Positions 45,649 through 63,585 of a stretch of 64,000 bases of DNA are shown one piece after another. Position 1 is the first letter of the stretch. Each line of letters begins with the position of its first letter. The notes beneath the pieces are model-generated. The model did no database searches, was not told the DNA's origin, and saw only the letters and a list, made by a program, of their open reading frames with translations. Made by a program: the position numbers and the translations under genes. Origin of the DNA: Candidatus Nomurabacteria bacterium (GTDB taxonomy: Bacteria; Patescibacteriota; Minisyncoccia; Phycocordibacterales; UBA9973); the NCBI GenBank assembly GCA_026395915.1, contig JAPLXU010000012.1:8996-72995 (forward strand), in the 5' to 3' direction.

Positions 45649-46758
45649 TTATTTACTCCCACCTTTCCCGGAAAACTTCGACACATTCAGCACAATGCCC
45701 ACAGCTATAAGATAAATCATGAGAGAAGTGCCTCCTTGGCTCATAAAAGGAAGAGGCACTCCTGTAAGCGGAAAAACTCCAGTGACAGAAGCTATGTGCA
45801 TAAACGATTGCACAGTGATAAGTATAACAATTCCGAAGACCAAAAGTCTACTAAAAAGATCGGGAGAATTATTTGCTATGCGAAAACCGCGCAAAGTGAA
45901 AAGCAAATAAAGAAGAATCACCCCCATTGTTCCGACAAAACCCAATTCTTCGCCTAAAACAGCAAAAATGGAGTCGCCTTGAGGTTCCGGTAAATAACTA
46001 AATTTTTGAATGCTTTGGCCAAATCCTCGCCCGAAAATTCCACCTGATCCCATGGCGATGAGCGATTGTTGGATTTGATAAGAAGACCCCTGCGGATCGG
46101 CTGAGGGATCAATGAAAGTCTTCACGCGTTCTTGAAGGTAAGGAGTAAAAAAAACAAGCGAGCCTAAAAGTAAAGCAACTCCTAAACTGGCGCCTAAAAT
46201 ATATTTTACAGGAACGCCGGAAATAAAAAGCATAGATGCTCCCGTTGCAACGATTAAAATAAAACTCTTTGTGTCAGGCTGTTTAAATAAAACTACACTG
46301 ATGATTGCTAACATCACGATGAATGGCAAAACTCCAAATCTGAAATCTTGGACTTTATTTTTAAAAGACGCGAACCATGACGCAAAATAAATGACAAATC
46401 CAAACTTCAAAAACTCAACTGGCTGGAAAGAAATGCCGGCAATCTGTATCCATCTTTGCGCTCCGCCATGACTCCAGCCAAAGTGAGGTATGAAGACAGC
46501 GGCAGTAAAAAGTATTGACCCCAAGAAAATTAAAAAAGAATATCTGCGCCAAAATTTATAATTTATTTTTGAACTGAAATACATTCCGACAAGTCCGCAA
46601 CCTAGCCCCAGAACAAGCTGACTGAAAAGTACTGAAAGAAAAAGTTTTTCATTTTTAACTAGAATCCCAAGAGAAGCCGAAATAAAAATAGCGACTCCTA
46701 CAGTAAGCAAGAGGCCGATAATTATCAAGAAAAATCTATCTACTTTCTTTTCTCTCAT
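45649..46758 (-). CDS. ftsW: SEDS-family peptidoglycan glycosyltransferase (FtsW/RodA)
   Basis: ~10 TM helices. 'PEPQGDSIFA' and 'SQGGTSLM' are SEDS signatures. Lies between mraY and murG. Confidence 0.85.
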   Translation of the reverse strand: MREKKVDRFFLIIIGLLLTVGVAIFISASLGILVKNEKLFLSVLFSQLVLGLGCGLVGMYFSSKINYKFWRRYSFLIFLGSILFTAAVFIPHFGWSHGGAQRWIQIAGISFQPVEFLKFGFVIYFASWFASFKNKVQDFRFGVLPFIVMLAIISVVLFKQPDTKSFILIVATGASMLFISGVPVKYILGASLGVALLLGSLVFFTPYLQERVKTFIDPSADPQGSSYQIQQSLIAMGSGGIFGRGFGQSIQKFSYLPEPQGDSIFAVLGEELGFVGTMGVILLYLLFTLRGFRIANNSPDLFSRLLVFGIVILITVQSFMHIASVTGVFPLTGVPLPFMSQGGTSLMIYLIAVGIVLNVSKFSGKGGSK

Positions 46759-46776: not shown

Positions 46777-46808
46777 AAGGCAAGACCTAACATGTTAGGT
46801 CTTGCCTT
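46777..46808 (-). promoter_or_regulatory. perfect 14-bp-stem hairpin in the mraY-ftsW spacer (attenuator/terminator or processing site)
   Basis: aaggcaagacctaac-atg-ttaggtcttgcctt. On the minus strand the closest T-run (ttttaat) follows it only after ~8 nt. Confidence 0.4.
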
Positions 46809-46812
46809 TATT

Positions 46813-47868
46813 CTACCTGCTAATAATCGCTAAAATTACGCCAATAATCGCAAAAACAATTGAAAAAACCCAAAAACGCATAGTAACTTTGTAAGATGGC
46901 CAGCCTATCGCTTCAAAATGATGATGTAGTGGAGCAAGTCTGAATAATCTTTTTCCGTTTCTGAATTTTTTCGAAGCCATTTGTAAAATAACGGAAAGAG
47001 ATGTCAGTACCAACGGCAATGCGACAACCGGGAGAATGAAGACAGAATCAGTTAAAAATGCGAGCGTCGCAAGAGTGATAGTGAGACCCATAATACCTGT
47101 TTCCCCCATGTAAAACCTAGCAGGCGGAATGTTGAACCATAGAAACGCCAAAGTTGCGCCGGTAACAACTGCGGAAAAAGCTGAGAGATCCATTTGGTTG
47201 TTCGCATAAGCGATTGCAGAATACGCCGCAAAAATAGATGCAAGCACACCTCCGGAAAGACCATCTATCCCGTCAATCACTCCTCCGGAAAAAGTCGCTA
47301 GCGAGACAACAATAAAAAATGGAATGATTAATACACCGAAATAAACGTCTCCCAAAAATGGAACATGAAGAAATGCCATCCCCAATTTATAATAAAACCA
47401 AATTCCGATTAAAAGAGAAATAACAATAATTAAAAATACTTTCCACATACGCCAAGATTTATCATCGCGCGCAAATTTGCCAGTGCCATAGATTTGAATG
47501 AAATCGTCCCAAAGTCCAATGAGTGACCCCAAGAGAAGAGTAAAAATCGGTATCAAAGTTTGACCACGACTCAAGAAATTAATCTCAAAAACATTCTCAA
47601 AAGAAAACAAGACCGATACTAAATAAAAAACAAGAGCTGTTGTTAAAACAGAAATCCAGATTATCACTCCGCCCACACGTGGAGTCTTTAATTCATCTTC
47701 TTCATTATGAATTTTGGAAAAATCGGAAGCGGTGGTGACCACATTTCTGGAATATCTTTTCCACATTTTATATTTATAAAAAAAGTGAGTAGCTATCGGC
47801 GTGAAAAGTAACCCGAAAAAGAATGCAAATGTCGTTGGCACAAAGATTTTCACTAAGTTTAAATACAT
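46813..47868 (-). CDS. mraY: phospho-N-acetylmuramoyl-pentapeptide transferase
   Basis: Polytopic membrane protein with MraY patterns, e.g. 'GLWDDF' and 'GIDGLSGG'. Confidence 0.85.
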   Translation of the reverse strand: MYLNLVKIFVPTTFAFFFGLLFTPIATHFFYKYKMWKRYSRNVVTTASDFSKIHNEEDELKTPRVGGVIIWISVLTTALVFYLVSVLFSFENVFEINFLSRGQTLIPIFTLLLGSLIGLWDDFIQIYGTGKFARDDKSWRMWKVFLIIVISLLIGIWFYYKLGMAFLHVPFLGDVYFGVLIIPFFIVVSLATFSGGVIDGIDGLSGGVLASIFAAYSAIAYANNQMDLSAFSAVVTGATLAFLWFNIPPARFYMGETGIMGLTITLATLAFLTDSVFILPVVALPLVLTSLSVILQMASKKFRNGKRLFRLAPLHHHFEAIGWPSYKVTMRFWVFSIVFAIIGVILAIISR

Positions 47869-58937: not shown

Positions 58938-60407
58938 ATGCCTAGTGTAAAAGAAATAACTGATCTAATAGTCGGAGGAGTCAGCCAGCAAGAACAAGAA
59001 CTTATAGAAAAAGCATACAAGCTTGCAGAAAAAGCGCACGAGGGTCAAACAAGAATTAACGGAGAACCCCATTTTATCCACCCATTTGAAACTGCAAAAA
59101 TTTTGGCTTCGCTTGGCATGGATATAGAAACCATAGTCAGCGGTCTTTTGCATGATATTTTGGAAGACAAAAAAATGACTGAAGCAGAATTGAAAAACGA
59201 ATTCGGCGGAGAAGTGCTTTTTTTAGTAAAGAGTGTTACGGGTTTGGGTAAATTAAAATATCTTGGGCACGAAAGATATGTGGAAAGTTTACGTAAACTT
59301 TTTATAGCTATGGCAAGTGATTTGCGTGTCGTTGTCATAAAGTTTGCCGATAGATTGCACTATTTACGAATATTGCAATATTTACGTGAAGATAAAAGAC
59401 GCAGAATAGCTGTGGAATCAATTGAAGTTTACGCTGCGCTCGCAAATCGCCTTGGGATGGGAAAACTCAAGGGCGATATTGAGGATGCCGCTTTTCCGTT
59501 CGCTTTTCCAAAAGAACACACATCAGTAGAAGAAATAATTGAAGTAAAAAAAGAATCGTATCAAAAACATTTGGCAGAAATAAAAAAAAGACTCGAAAAA
59601 GAATTAAATGAAAACAAAATTAATGTGTCCGAAATTAACTACAGAATAAAACACAAATTCAGCTTATGGAAAAAACTTTTACAGCATGATATGGATATAG
59701 ATAAAATATACGATGTGGTCGCCCTTCGTATCGTAGTAGAAAGTATTGAGGAATGTTACAGAGTCCTCGGAATTATACACTCAATTTGGAACCCATTGCC
59801 CGGCAGAATAAAAGACTATATCTCACTACCAAAACCTAACGGCTATCAATCTATTCACACTACCGTTTTCACTGGAGGAGGTGGAACGGCAGAAATTCAA
59901 ATAAGAACAGAAAAAATGCATGCGGAAGCGGCTTATGGTATTGCAGCTCATTTTGCTTACAAAGAACAAGGCAGTAAAAAAATTAATAAAGATAAATCAA
60001 AGTTCAAATGGATTGAAGAGTTAAAAAGCTTGAATTACGCTCCAAATAAACCAAAAGTTTTTTTGGAGCATCTTAAAATGGATTTTTTCAGCAATCATAT
60101 TTTCGTTTTCACACCAGAAGGAGACGTCGTCGATTTGCCGGAAAATTCTAGTCCAATTGATTTCGCCTATTCAATACATTCTGATATAGGAAACCATATC
60201 TCCGGCGCAAAAATCAACGGAAAAATGTCCCATATTTTTTCAAAATTAAAAAACAGAGATATTGTAGAAATAATAAAAAATAAGGATGCTCATCCATCTA
60301 ATAAATGGCTAGAATCTGCGAGAACAACTATCGCTAGAAAACACATAAGATCATATCTGGAAAAGCATAGCTTGTTAAATAGACTTAGATCATTCGGGCG
60401 AACTTAG
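58938..60407 (+). CDS. rel: (p)ppGpp synthetase/hydrolase Rel, short form (HD + synthetase + TGS, no ACT)
   Basis: HD motif 'HPFETAKIL..LLHDILED'. Synthetase 'YQSIHTTV'. TGS 'IFVFTPEGDVVDLP'. 489 aa. Confidence 0.85.
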   Translation: MPSVKEITDLIVGGVSQQEQELIEKAYKLAEKAHEGQTRINGEPHFIHPFETAKILASLGMDIETIVSGLLHDILEDKKMTEAELKNEFGGEVLFLVKSVTGLGKLKYLGHERYVESLRKLFIAMASDLRVVVIKFADRLHYLRILQYLREDKRRRIAVESIEVYAALANRLGMGKLKGDIEDAAFPFAFPKEHTSVEEIIEVKKESYQKHLAEIKKRLEKELNENKINVSEINYRIKHKFSLWKKLLQHDMDIDKIYDVVALRIVVESIEECYRVLGIIHSIWNPLPGRIKDYISLPKPNGYQSIHTTVFTGGGGTAEIQIRTEKMHAEAAYGIAAHFAYKEQGSKKINKDKSKFKWIEELKSLNYAPNKPKVFLEHLKMDFFSNHIFVFTPEGDVVDLPENSSPIDFAYSIHSDIGNHISGAKINGKMSHIFSKLKNRDIVEIIKNKDAHPSNKWLESARTTIARKHIRSYLEKHSLLNRLRSFGRT

Positions 60408-61470: not shown

Positions 61471-61554
61471 GCCGGAGTGGCGAAATTGGTAACCGCAATT
61501 GACTCAAAATCAATCGGGGGCAACCCCTTGGGAGTTCGAGTCTCCCCTCCGGCA
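61471..61554 (+). tRNA. tRNA-Leu (anticodon CAA), class II with long variable arm; no encoded CCA
   Basis: Acceptor GCCGGAG/CTCCGGC+A. Anticodon stem-loop attga-CTCAAAA-tcaat. T-arm GGGAG-TTCGAGT-CTCCC. Variable stem cgggg..cccc. Confidence 0.85.
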
Positions 61555-61578
61555 CAAAATATGTTTATATTTTTTAAT

Positions 61579-61689: not shown

Positions 61690-61935
61690 ATGCTAAACTT
61701 AGCAACGGTAAAGGGTAAAAAAATTGCCCTAGAAGCTCTGGAGCAACGACGAAAAGAAAACGCCAAAAGGAAGAAGATTGACAACAAAGATCTCCCTGCT
61801 GGCTCACCGATGTACTTCTATTGCTTAAGCTGCAACGGAATAGCTGATCAGCTTCCGGAGAGGTACTTTCTTTCCACACCAAAAAGAATTTGCGACGAAT
61901 GCTTTGCACTCAAGGAATTGGGTTGGTTGGAATAG
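61690..61935 (+). CDS. small zinc-ribbon protein (hypothetical)
   Basis: 81 aa with CxxC..CxxC ('YCLSCNG..ICDEC'). Followed by a strong terminator. Confidence 0.4.
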   Translation: MLNLATVKGKKIALEALEQRRKENAKRKKIDNKDLPAGSPMYFYCLSCNGIADQLPERYFLSTPKRICDECFALKELGWLE

Positions 61936-61962: not shown

Positions 61963-62007
61963 GAACCCTCTTGTAGAATTCATTTCTGCTCGAGGGTTCT
62001 GTTTTTT
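61963..62007 (+). terminator. rho-independent terminator
   Basis: gaaccctc-N21-gagggttc hairpin followed by TGTTTTTT. Confidence 0.7.
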
Positions 62008-62032
62008 AAAAATTATACTATCTACTTGCAAT

Positions 62033-62050
62033 TATCTCATATATGAGATA
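62033..62050. promoter_or_regulatory. 18-bp perfect palindrome; candidate operator for the XRE HTH of the downstream gene
   Basis: TATCTCATATATGAGATA equals its own reverse complement. 12 nt upstream of the ATG at 62062. Confidence 0.45.
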
Positions 62051-62061
62051 TACTTCTTCTT

Positions 62062-63585
62062 ATGAAAATAAAGATGCAAAATGAGCAACAAAAGATAGGC
62101 TTTTTTATTAAAGAATTACGCGAACACCGCGGAATGACACAAGAAGAACTCGCAAAAGCTCTCAATACTTCTCAAAGCTCAATTCCAAGAATGGAAAAAG
62201 GTGAGCAAAATTTCACCACAGAATTACTCTCAAAAATAAGTAATGTTTTAGACCATCAAATAGTTTCAATAAATGATTCAATAGACTTTCAAGTGAACGG
62301 AGGTAAAAAATTGAGCGGGACAATTAAAACAAATTTTTCCAAAAACGGTTCGGTGGGTCTTCTTTGCGCGTCGCTTTTAAACAACGGAACAACGACCCTG
62401 CATGGTATTGCTCGAATTGAAGAGGTTTATAGAGTAATTGAAATTCTAGAAAGCATCGGCGTTATCGTAAGATGGCTCAATCAAAATACCTTGACTATCA
62501 CGCCTCCAAAAAAATTCAATTTAGAAAATATCAATACAGAATCAGCAATCAAAACTCGCTCTGTCGTGATGCTCATGGGACCTCTCGTCCATAAACTGTC
62601 TTCCTTCTCGATTCCCCACCCGCACGGATGCAATTTAGGCAAAAGAACAATTGCAGCTCATATTTACGCGCTTGAAAAACTTGGAATAAAAATTAAAACC
62701 ACTAGCGAAAAATATGAAATTACGGCTAAAAGAATGAAATCAGCAGAAATAGTAATGTACGAATCTGGAGATACTGCCTGCGAAAATGTTTTGACTGCCT
62801 CGGCACTTATCCAAGGCGAAACAAAAATAAATTTTGCCAGCGCAAATTACATGGTGCAAGAAGTTTGTTTCTTTCTCGAAGCTTTGGGTGTAAAGATCGA
62901 TGGTATAGGCACTGCCAGTCTAACTGTCTACGGGATAAAAGAAATCAACAAAGACATTGAATATTGGAACAGCGAGGACCCTATAGAATCAATGATGTTT
63001 ATTTCAGCTGGAATTATTACTGATTCAAAACTTACAATTACTCGAGCACCGATTGACTTCTTGGCGCTTGAATTGGAAAAATTAAAAAGAATGAATTTAA
63101 AATACAAAACTTCGAAAGTTTATTATTCATTTAACGGCAGAACAAAACTTGTCGATATAGAAATATTTCCAAGTAAATTAATTGCGCTGAATGACAAACT
63201 TCATTCAAATCCCTATCCGGGAATAAATATAGATAACCTGCCTTTTTTTGTGCCAGTTGCTATCAAAGCCAAAGGACAGACCATGATTCACGATTGGGTT
63301 TACGAAAATAGAGCTATATATCTTACAGAATTAAATCGTCTAGGCGCAGATATTACTCTCGCTGATCCGCATCGTCTATATATCAATGGTGGTACGCCTC
63401 TTCGAGGGGCCCAAGTAGTTTGCCCTCCGGCCTTGCGTCCATCAATGGTGATTCTCATCTCAATGCTTGGAGCAAGTGGCACTTCAATTTTGCGAAATGT
63501 CTATATGATAAATCGAGGTTATGAAGAAATCGCCGAAAGACTAAACTCCATCGGCGCAGATATTAAAATCATCAAAGGAAACTAA
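62062..63585 (+). CDS. murA: UDP-N-acetylglucosamine 1-carboxyvinyltransferase (MurA) with N-terminal XRE-type helix-turn-helix domain
   Basis: N-terminus 'LRELREHRGMTQEELAKALNTSQSSIPRMEKGE' is an XRE HTH. Then the EPT fold with the active-site loop 'HPHGCNLGKRT' (Cys present). 507 aa. Confidence 0.75.
   Translation: MKIKMQNEQQKIGFFIKELREHRGMTQEELAKALNTSQSSIPRMEKGEQNFTTELLSKISNVLDHQIVSINDSIDFQVNGGKKLSGTIKTNFSKNGSVGLLCASLLNNGTTTLHGIARIEEVYRVIEILESIGVIVRWLNQNTLTITPPKKFNLENINTESAIKTRSVVMLMGPLVHKLSSFSIPHPHGCNLGKRTIAAHIYALEKLGIKIKTTSEKYEITAKRMKSAEIVMYESGDTACENVLTASALIQGETKINFASANYMVQEVCFFLEALGVKIDGIGTASLTVYGIKEINKDIEYWNSEDPIESMMFISAGIITDSKLTITRAPIDFLALELEKLKRMNLKYKTSKVYYSFNGRTKLVDIEIFPSKLIALNDKLHSNPYPGINIDNLPFFVPVAIKAKGQTMIHDWVYENRAIYLTELNRLGADITLADPHRLYINGGTPLRGAQVVCPPALRPSMVILISMLGASGTSILRNVYMINRGYEEIAERLNSIGADIKIIKGN

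Follow-up and report, generated by a model that had tools for sequence, protein, structure and literature searches.

A MurA protein with an N-terminal helix-turn-helix domain and a conserved promoter palindrome: a candidate enzyme-repressor of murA in Candidatus Nomurabacteria

MurA is essential, is the target of fosfomycin, and is the entry point of peptidoglycan synthesis. How the level of MurA is set is understood in only a few model organisms. We analyzed a 64-kb window (the whole stretch of 64,000 nucleotides, whose numbering is used throughout) from contig JAPLXU010000012.1 of a Candidatus Nomurabacteria bacterium. It contains a gene for MurA fused to an N-terminal XRE helix-turn-helix (HTH) domain, here called HTH-MurA, with an 18-bp palindrome in the predicted promoter of that gene. 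We found that the palindrome accompanies the HTH in related genomes and is absent where murA has no HTH. Based on these comparisons, we think it likely that HTH-MurA is a bifunctional enzyme-repressor that autoregulates murA.

In the mechanism that we propose, the gene product would be both the cell's MurA (C-terminal 430 residues) and an XRE DNA-binding protein (N-terminal 70 residues). Two copies would bind the palindrome, which fills the spacer between the -35 and -10 elements of the gene's own promoter. The bound protein would exclude RNA polymerase, and this negative autoregulation would hold MurA at a set level. The promoter would produce a leaderless mRNA. Where a divergent murB lies beside the site, one bound dimer would control the first two steps of the pathway. 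Less certainly, a ligand of the MurA domain (UDP-N-acetylglucosamine, UDP-GlcNAc; phosphoenolpyruvate, PEP; or UDP-N-acetylmuramic acid, UDP-MurNAc) probably tunes the affinity for DNA. Ligand-induced closure of the enolpyruvyl transferase (EPT) fold would then modulate DNA binding, and the enzyme would report pathway flux to its own promoter.

Results

HTH-MurA combines an XRE domain with a full-length MurA domain

The gene and the parts of its product are as follows.

62062..63585, + strand: HTH-MurA gene (XRE helix-turn-helix plus UDP-GlcNAc 1-carboxyvinyltransferase), a single open reading frame (ORF) of 507 aa with an ATG start, stop codon included
62107..62253, + strand: XRE/Cro-C1-type HTH domain, aa 16-64 (PF01381 HTH_3, E 4e-14)
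62167-62202, + strand: recognition-helix region TSQSSIPRMEKG, aa 36-47, inside the HTH domain
62287..63573, + strand: MurA domain (EPT fold), aa 76-504, by full-length alignment to solved MurA
62629-62631, + strand: catalytic Cys190, in the loop HPHGCNLGKRT

An earlier reading of the DNA, made from the sequence alone (the sequence-only reading), had described an XRE HTH ahead of an EPT fold in one protein, with the catalytic Cys loop HPHGCNLGKRT intact. Both descriptions hold. Pfam places the HTH at aa 16-64 (HTH_3, 52.8 bits against a cut-off of 23; HTH_31, HTH_19 and HTH_26 also pass) and a complete EPT fold behind it (EPSP_synthase, PF00275, at aa 78-494, profile positions 1-417 of 417, E 4e-42). 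The NCBIfam model for the MurA subfamily, PRK09369, scores 318 bits and its cut-off of 297 is exceeded. The enzyme part can be aligned over its whole length to 32 distinct MurA sequences of solved structure (best E 1.7e-54), and Cys190 aligns with the catalytic Cys of the solved structures and with E. coli Cys115. Because the aligned residues match, HPHGCNLGKRT is a genuine catalytic loop.

In a MAFFT alignment with an E. coli MurA reference sequence, the equivalents of K22, N23, R91, C115, R120, D305, R331, L370, R371 and R397 (E. coli numbering) are all kept. The main catalytic residues are likewise kept in every close ortholog. Of the residues checked, only the D369 equivalent deviates; it is Ala throughout the clade, in fused and unfused proteins. 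Substitutions of Asp369 (Asp369Asn) are known in MurA of viable, clinical, fosfomycin-resistant E. coli (PMC10352792), so Ala at this position need not abolish activity. Judged by its residues, the MurA part looks catalytically competent. The divergent murB found beside the gene in 27 of 61 related loci (below) lends indirect support to a function in enolpyruvyl transfer from PEP to UDP-GlcNAc.

An AlphaFold2 model built from a 15-sequence alignment had a mean pLDDT (predicted local distance difference test) of 45. The HTH alone was confident (pLDDT 72-82), with helices at aa 8-22, 27-34, 40-45 and 53-62 that form a compact, all-helical HTH. We also considered an internal start at the HTH/MurA junction (GGAGGT-N6-TTG) that would give free MurA, and rejected it because the Gly-Gly codons vary freely among orthologs.

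The palindrome lies between the -35 and -10 elements of the predicted promoter

Upstream of the gene we found the following.

61963..62007, + strand: intrinsic terminator of the upstream 81-aa ORF (hairpin 61963-61999, U-run)
62026..62031, + strand: -35 hexamer TTGCAA (consensus promoter scan)
62033..62050: 18-bp perfect palindrome TATCTCATATATGAGATA, predicted operator of an HTH-MurA dimer, unique in the window and conserved across loci
62049..62054, + strand: -10 hexamer TATACT (consensus promoter scan), which shares the last two palindrome bases

The terminator hairpin has a predicted folding energy of -21.7 kcal/mol (z = -4.0 against shuffled sequences) and is followed by UGUUUUUU. With a terminator upstream, HTH-murA is a separate transcription unit and needs its own promoter. 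The predicted promoter has the geometry TTGCAA-17-TATACT, with 16 of the 18 palindrome bases in the spacer and 2 in the -10. The end of the -10 is 7 nt from the ATG, the usual distance to a transcription start, and so a leaderless mRNA is predicted.

The coordinates and symmetry that the sequence-only reading gave for the palindrome, a perfect 9+9 repeat (TATCTCATATATGAGATA), were confirmed. Its distance from the ATG, given there as 12 nt, was right to within one base; we count 11 bases between palindrome and ATG. By itself, an 18-bp palindrome is statistically unremarkable in the window. The window has 3 perfect zero-loop palindromes of at least 18 bp where a first-order Markov model expects 0.54, and at least one such palindrome occurs in 42% of windows simulated with that model. 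The weight of this palindrome comes from its position in the promoter spacer and its conservation across genomes, not from palindromy alone. Function of the palindrome as an RNA hairpin was rejected, since transcription is predicted to start downstream of the site, which sits between -35 and -10.

The fusion is widespread and has HTH-less orthologs

The best 120 matches to HTH-MurA among 5.8 billion proteins are 501-521 aa long and 80-100% identical, and all of them have both domains. One (P0001) is the identical protein; the other 119 are 80-90% identical. Many projects contributed the assemblies concerned (Candidatus Nomurabacteria, Paceibacterota and Parcubacteria), and public annotation calls the proteins MurA or 'XRE family regulator'. 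Among 1.8 billion cluster representatives, full-length fusions reach down to 32-38% identity.

We collected related loci from one genome per GTDB species, which gave at least 540 loci with relatives, and examined the best 80. The sequence-only reading had asked whether MurA proteins of related genomes also carry the HTH, and 62 of these 80 species-representative loci do. The other 18 have an HTH-less MurA of 441-447 aa. The HTH-less proteins are 81-91% identical to the fused forms in the enzyme part and are interspersed among them, so the fused gene is the ortholog of an ordinary murA. For example, one HTH-less protein (L042) shares 87.9% identity with a fused protein from the subgroup of the window and 84.8% with its nearest unfused relative. 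A rough neighbor-joining tree without support values suggests that the HTH was lost independently at least two or three times. The sequence-only reading had foreseen neither how widespread the fusion is in the lineage, nor the HTH-less orthologs, nor the catalytically dead fused relatives described below.

These results bear on the possibility that the fusion is an artefact of assembly or gene calling, in which a sequencing error joined two genes. The sequence-only reading had named a frameshift or stop between the two parts as an observation that would overturn it. We found nothing that speaks for an artefact. The ORF runs on uninterrupted in more than 100 protein clusters, and the 62 species-representative genomes that have it stem from many independent projects and assemblers. 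The Shine-Dalgarno-like GGAGGT at the junction is not conserved and gives no support for an internal start. Because the fusion recurs across independent assemblies, we exclude an artefact, to which we assign a negligible probability.

Some further observations concern the gene and its surroundings. The order RelA/SpoT-like, ParB-like, tRNA-Leu, (HTH-)murA is widely conserved. In many of the HTH-less loci (L042, L058, L061, L063, L065-L067, L069, L070, L073-L075 and L079) murA begins 0-10 nt past the 3' end of tRNA-Leu; this leaves no room for a promoter and implies co-transcription with the tRNA. Longer ORFs with a MurA part were seen in L019 (700 aa), L080 (964 aa) and P0261 (1204 aa, MurA-like at residues 756-1199) and are either additional fusions or cases of a missing stop codon.

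The palindrome is conserved together with the HTH

We found the sequence TAT[A/C]TCATATATGA[G/T]ATA, with at most 3 substitutions, upstream of the gene in 61 of the 62 fused loci. The one fused locus without it starts at a contig edge. In contrast, the site was absent from all 18 HTH-less loci, anywhere in the approximately 7 kb of each. In 57 of the 61 loci the site is within 300 nt of the start; in the remaining 4 it is farther upstream, heading operons with intervening genes (an AAA_33 kinase-like gene, a histidine phosphatase, and a NUDIX plus nucleotidyltransferase pair). There are almost no additional copies per ~7.5-kb fused locus.

In a site-anchored alignment of 62 loci, 16 of the 18 palindrome positions were 92-100% conserved, compared with 37-60% for other DNA. 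The -35 and -10 are conserved too, with TTGCAA, or TTGCA shifted by one base, in most orthologous loci. An in-frame ATG follows the -10 at 5-9 nt in 41 of 58 loci, 25 of which have exactly 7 nt. This conserved spacing supports the promoter assignment and a true start at the ATG of 62062.

A divergent murB (MurB_C plus FAD_binding_4) adjoins the site in 27 of the 61 loci. Its ATG is 8-12 nt from the left arm of the palindrome in 26 of these 27, and the murA ATG is ~11 nt from the right arm. This arrangement mirrors itself, as it would if the palindrome were promoter architecture only, made of the back-to-back (extended) -10 elements of a bidirectional leaderless murB/murA promoter, with the HTH acting elsewhere. 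The TATATCATATATGATATA(AT) variant of the palindrome also fits such a promoter, reading TGnTATAAT outward on both strands, and the outer arm bases of the palindrome form part of the -10. However, the left arm is equally conserved in 23 loci without a divergent ORF (0.13 mismatches per arm, against 0.08 beside murB), and for this reason we rejected the symmetry of a bidirectional promoter as the sole cause. In the window variant, moreover, the -35 and -10 cover just 2 of the 18 palindrome bases, and the remainder is spacer, which is normally unconserved in promoters. The variable operator positions also covary with the recognition helix (below). An HTH under such strong conservation must have some target in DNA, and we saw no other conserved non-coding element in these loci. 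We consider a promoter-only origin of the palindrome unlikely. A promoter and an operator are compatible here, as repressors classically shut two divergent core promoters with one dimer on an operator that overlaps both.

Searching the genome for further copies of the palindrome had been proposed as a way to define a regulon, and this question was answered in part. The same site adjoins the divergent murB in the 27 related loci, but in the 64-kb window there was no second copy of TATCTCATATATGAGATA with 3 mismatches allowed, and likewise none when the search was relaxed to a 12-mer core. When metagenome contigs were scanned for exact matches, 80 readable loci had the palindrome. In 18 of these it was directly upstream of HTH-MurA genes (49-87% identity, one on a contig of 64% GC), and in 4 it was near stand-alone XRE genes. 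The remaining metagenome sites, mainly the low-complexity TATATCATATATGATATA variant in AT repeats and otherwise longer, unrelated hairpins, were rejected as a regulon and judged to be chance matches.

A perfect DnaA-box-like motif, (A)GTTATCCACA, with a ParB-like gene adjacent, was seen ~5-30 nt upstream of the -35 in many relatives with the tRNA-Leu context (L001, L003, L004, L006-L010, L012, L014-L016, L072 and L077; metagenome loci L117 and L130). Its counterpart in the window is degenerate (ctATCTACt, ~62017-62025). The motif could represent DnaA input into the promoter, or the locus could lie near the origin in some genomes. The idea came from TTATCCACA motifs in relatives; near HTH-murA in the window there is no cluster of DnaA boxes.

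The recognition helix and the palindrome covary

The recognition-helix region TSQSSIPRMEKGEQNFTTELL is invariant among orthologs of 80-89% identity, as are residues 36-56. Across the broader set, helices of the type SQSS[IV]PR were found only with operators that carry C4 and/or G15 (34/47). Operators with A/T at both positions 4 and 15 had SQSA..R helices in all 39 of 39 cases. The association is strong (Fisher p = 1.5e-13) in a test that ignores phylogeny, and we regard this covariation as supportive only.

The closest solved relatives of the HTH are controller (C) proteins of restriction-modification systems (3clc and 2b5a, E about 1e-5). Such controller proteins are dimeric autoregulators that act at palindromes in their own promoters. 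In addition, in an unrelated gene neighborhood (L126), a stand-alone XRE gene of 103 aa with the helix TSQSAVARMESGKQNMT lies directly behind the same palindrome. Taken together, these comparisons lead us to predict that an HTH-MurA dimer binds the 18-bp palindrome.

Alternatively, the palindrome might be the site of another, unlinked transcription factor, with the HTH serving other DNA, nucleoid tethering or protein contacts. The link between HTH and site rests on comparison, and 7-13 kb around each gene was covered, which leaves room for such a factor. Against it, the HTH and the palindrome are present or absent together across ~32-90% identity and through changing gene neighborhoods, the stand-alone XRE protein of L126 has a nearly identical recognition helix behind the same site, and the recognition helix and operator covary. 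An unlinked factor seems to us improbable.

Stand-alone short XRE genes were seen beside the palindrome in L126 (5865-6176, -), L082 (3406-3783, +), L139 and L154. They may be related to an ancestral autoregulated HTH module that was later fused to MurA.

Distant fused relatives have lost catalytic residues and kept the putative operator

Several distant fusions (P0128, P0130, P0138, P0139, P0145, P0190 and P0217) do not have the equivalents of C115, R91 and R120, and often not those of R371 or R397. Most of them keep the equivalents of K22, N23, D305 and R331, which is consistent with retained ligand binding in proteins that appear to be catalytically dead. Compared with the window protein, they are 47-60% identical in the HTH and 29-42% identical in the enzyme-like domain.

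The dead fusions, at 32-43% identity, have one site per 9-13 kb locus, always at the head of an operon. In P0128 (43%), TTGACA...CATATCATATATGATATA directly precedes the ATG. P0130 (38%) has a geometry like that of the window: TTGACA, a 17-nt spacer with the palindrome core (18-mer TATATCATATATGATATT), TTAAAT, 7 nt and the ATG. The site of P0138 (36%) heads an operon of NUDIX, nucleotidyltransferase and HTH-EPT genes, and that of P0190 (32%), AATATCAGATATGATATAAT, is at the gene start. Distant fusions also occur in mur clusters, beside a separate EPT protein of 438 aa with an intact PGGC.LG.R loop; these clusters also hold MurB, Ddl and Mur ligases. The HTH-EPT architecture thus persists after catalysis is lost, and on this basis we argue that it would be regulatory in the window protein too.

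The same relatives raise the question of whether the window protein is itself mainly a MurA-derived regulator or sensor, with MurA activity supplied by another gene. Fusions without C115, R91 and R120 do adjoin a stand-alone EPT, the window spans only 64 kb, and the window protein misses the TIGR01072 equivalog cut-off. Several results point the other way. The window protein and every close ortholog keep the main catalytic residues, with only D369 different (Ala, clade-wide), a position at which E. coli MurA with substitutions is viable (PMC10352792). The interspersed HTH-less orthologs, 85-91% identical in the enzyme part, look like ordinary, sole murA genes. In none of the 80 loci did the +/-3 kb around the gene contain a second EPT gene, and the 64-kb window has no second MurA, murB, alr, ddl or mur-ligase gene. 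That the window protein is chiefly a regulator is, we judge, quite improbable.

In two distant lineages the operator heads an operon of NUDIX, sugar-nucleotidyltransferase and HTH-EPT genes (L060, 1730-2992; L205, 4735-5996). The nucleotidyltransferase may help to supply UDP-sugars; if so, the regulated pathway would reach back to steps before MurA. Two of the stand-alone 438-aa EPTs found next to Cys-less fusions (L201, 95-1411, -; L202, 4624-5940, -) keep K22, N23, R91, C115, R120, D305 and R397 and have Gly, Ile and Gln at R331, D369 and R371. They are an unusual MurA variant or possibly reflect an alignment artefact.

Other features of the window

A tRNA-Leu(CAA) gene (61471-61555) is upstream of HTH-murA. 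Between it and the HTH-murA promoter is the 81-aa ORF (61690-61935, +), which has no Pfam match. Its two CxxC pairs (YCLSCNG ... ICDECF) suggest a zinc ribbon. The longest perfect palindrome in the window, 32 bp (AAGGCAAGACCTAACATGTTAGGTCTTGCCTT, 46777-46808), lies in the 54-nt gap between the minus-strand ORFs 45649..46758 and 46813..47868; it could act as a terminator or bind a protein. A further 18-bp perfect palindrome (AAAGTTTACGTAAACTTT, 59284-59301) is within a RelA/SpoT-like ORF (58938..60407).

Discussion

Evidence for and against autoregulation

What the sequences show is the domain architecture, the intact catalytic residues, the layout of promoter and operator, and the way HTH and palindrome are conserved, occur together and covary. 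From these comparisons we infer that the protein binds the site, that it does so as a dimer, that it represses rather than activates, and that a ligand controls it. Repression is the direction we favor because the operator sits between the -35 and the -10. The putative targets would be functionally coherent: the divergent murB and, in distant relatives, mur ligases, ddl, murA-murB and the NUDIX/nucleotidyltransferase operon.

Several points weigh against autoregulation by HTH-MurA. The support for it is entirely comparative. MurA is generally described as a monomer, whereas a palindromic site needs dimerisation, and the AlphaFold2 model is too poor to address domain arrangement, packing or dimerisation. 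The window protein scores 307.5 bits with the equivalog model TIGR01072, below the cut-off of 392.7. The absence of the site from all 18 HTH-less loci is not 18 independent events; the phylogeny supports only ~2-3 or more losses. Most HTH-less genes start 0-10 nt past tRNA-Leu, so one deletion, reaching from the tRNA-Leu gene to the enzyme domain, could remove promoter, operator and HTH together. Lastly, the palindrome overlaps promoter elements, and part of its conservation could reflect promoter function.

Comparison with known systems

BzdR of Azoarcus sp. CIB consists of an XRE-type HTH and an effector domain derived from shikimate kinase, and its still-catalytic intermediate had to be rebuilt as synthetic chimeras (PMC3602430). 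In HTH-MurA, too, an N-terminal XRE HTH is joined by a short linker to a C-terminal domain of metabolic-enzyme origin, and both proteins are thought to have arisen by an enzyme recruiting a DNA-binding domain. The fused relatives without the catalytic Cys (P0128, P0130, P0138 and others) match the state of BzdR, an enzyme-derived sensor without catalysis. Unlike BzdR, HTH-MurA has the EPT/MurA fold rather than that of shikimate kinase and belongs to the cell wall rather than to benzoate catabolism. The window protein also differs in keeping the main catalytic residues, and would correspond to the bifunctional 'missing link'.

HTH-MurA also resembles the 'trigger enzymes' in having a catalytic and a DNA-binding domain in one polypeptide. 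BirA, PutA and NadR are bifunctional enzyme-repressors of this kind, which repress their own gene or other genes of their pathway at a palindromic operator that overlaps the promoter, with substrate- or intermediate-dependent DNA binding that has been shown experimentally. For HTH-MurA, in contrast, ligand-dependent binding is a prediction, and the folds and DNA-binding domains are unrelated (a winged HTH in BirA, a ribbon-helix-helix in PutA). The C proteins C.Esp1396I (3clc) and C.BclI (2b5a), although closest to the XRE domain among solved structures, are stand-alone proteins of ~80 aa in restriction-modification operons, with no enzyme domain and with different operators. Their similarity to HTH-MurA is confined to the generic XRE fold.

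HTH-MurA shares with canonical MurA (E. coli and Enterobacter cloacae; 1uae, 1naw) the full-length EPT fold, the catalytic set and the fosfomycin-target Cys, and murA is linked to murB in related genomes. It is unlike canonical MurA in its 75-aa N-terminal HTH extension, its identity of about 30-35%, the Ala at D369 and the score below the TIGR01072 cut-off. In model bacteria the known control of MurA is post-translational and works through ClpCP proteolysis via ReoM (in Firmicutes) and through inhibition by UDP-MurNAc. The control proposed for HTH-MurA differs in being transcriptional and exerted by the enzyme itself. In the literature that we searched, to which few subscription-journal papers belonged, we came across no account of MurA fused to an HTH or regulating its own gene, and no enzyme-repressor arrangement for MurA or any other peptidoglycan precursor enzyme.

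A possible series from enzyme to regulator

We suggest, tentatively and at somewhat less than even odds, that Patescibacteria contain a natural series that runs from plain MurA, through an HTH-MurA enzyme-repressor, to an HTH-EPT pseudo-enzyme regulator, with the EPT domain as a sensor of UDP-sugars. At the second stage, HTH-MurA would still be the housekeeping enzyme and would repress its own leaderless promoter, plus murB where that gene is adjacent. At the third, pseudo-enzymes without Cys115, R91 and R120 would occur next to a separate MurA, at the head of mur/ddl operons with the same operator. The transition of MurA between open and closed states on binding UDP-GlcNAc, and its tight 'dormant' complex with UDP-MurNAc, are well known. 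Either could be converted to promoter occupancy.

Significance

If our interpretation is correct, a MurA equipped with a repressor domain and an operator of its own would be a new and highly compact way to control this enzyme. It would operate in ultra-small, hard-to-culture Patescibacteria, in which gene regulation is almost unexplored. The distance from -10 to ATG, centered on 7 nt, adds evidence for leaderless transcription in the lineage. The system is small and accessible in vitro: it comprises a single protein and a single 18-bp site, and its ligands can be bought.

The window protein would represent a naturally occurring BzdR-type intermediate, in another fold and in an essential cell-wall enzyme. 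If the series that we suggest is real, the family would show, in nature, intermediate stages of enzymes that recruit a DNA-binding domain and turn into regulators. In bacteria that have very few regulators, HTH-MurA would then by itself sense the flux at the first committed step of cell-wall synthesis.

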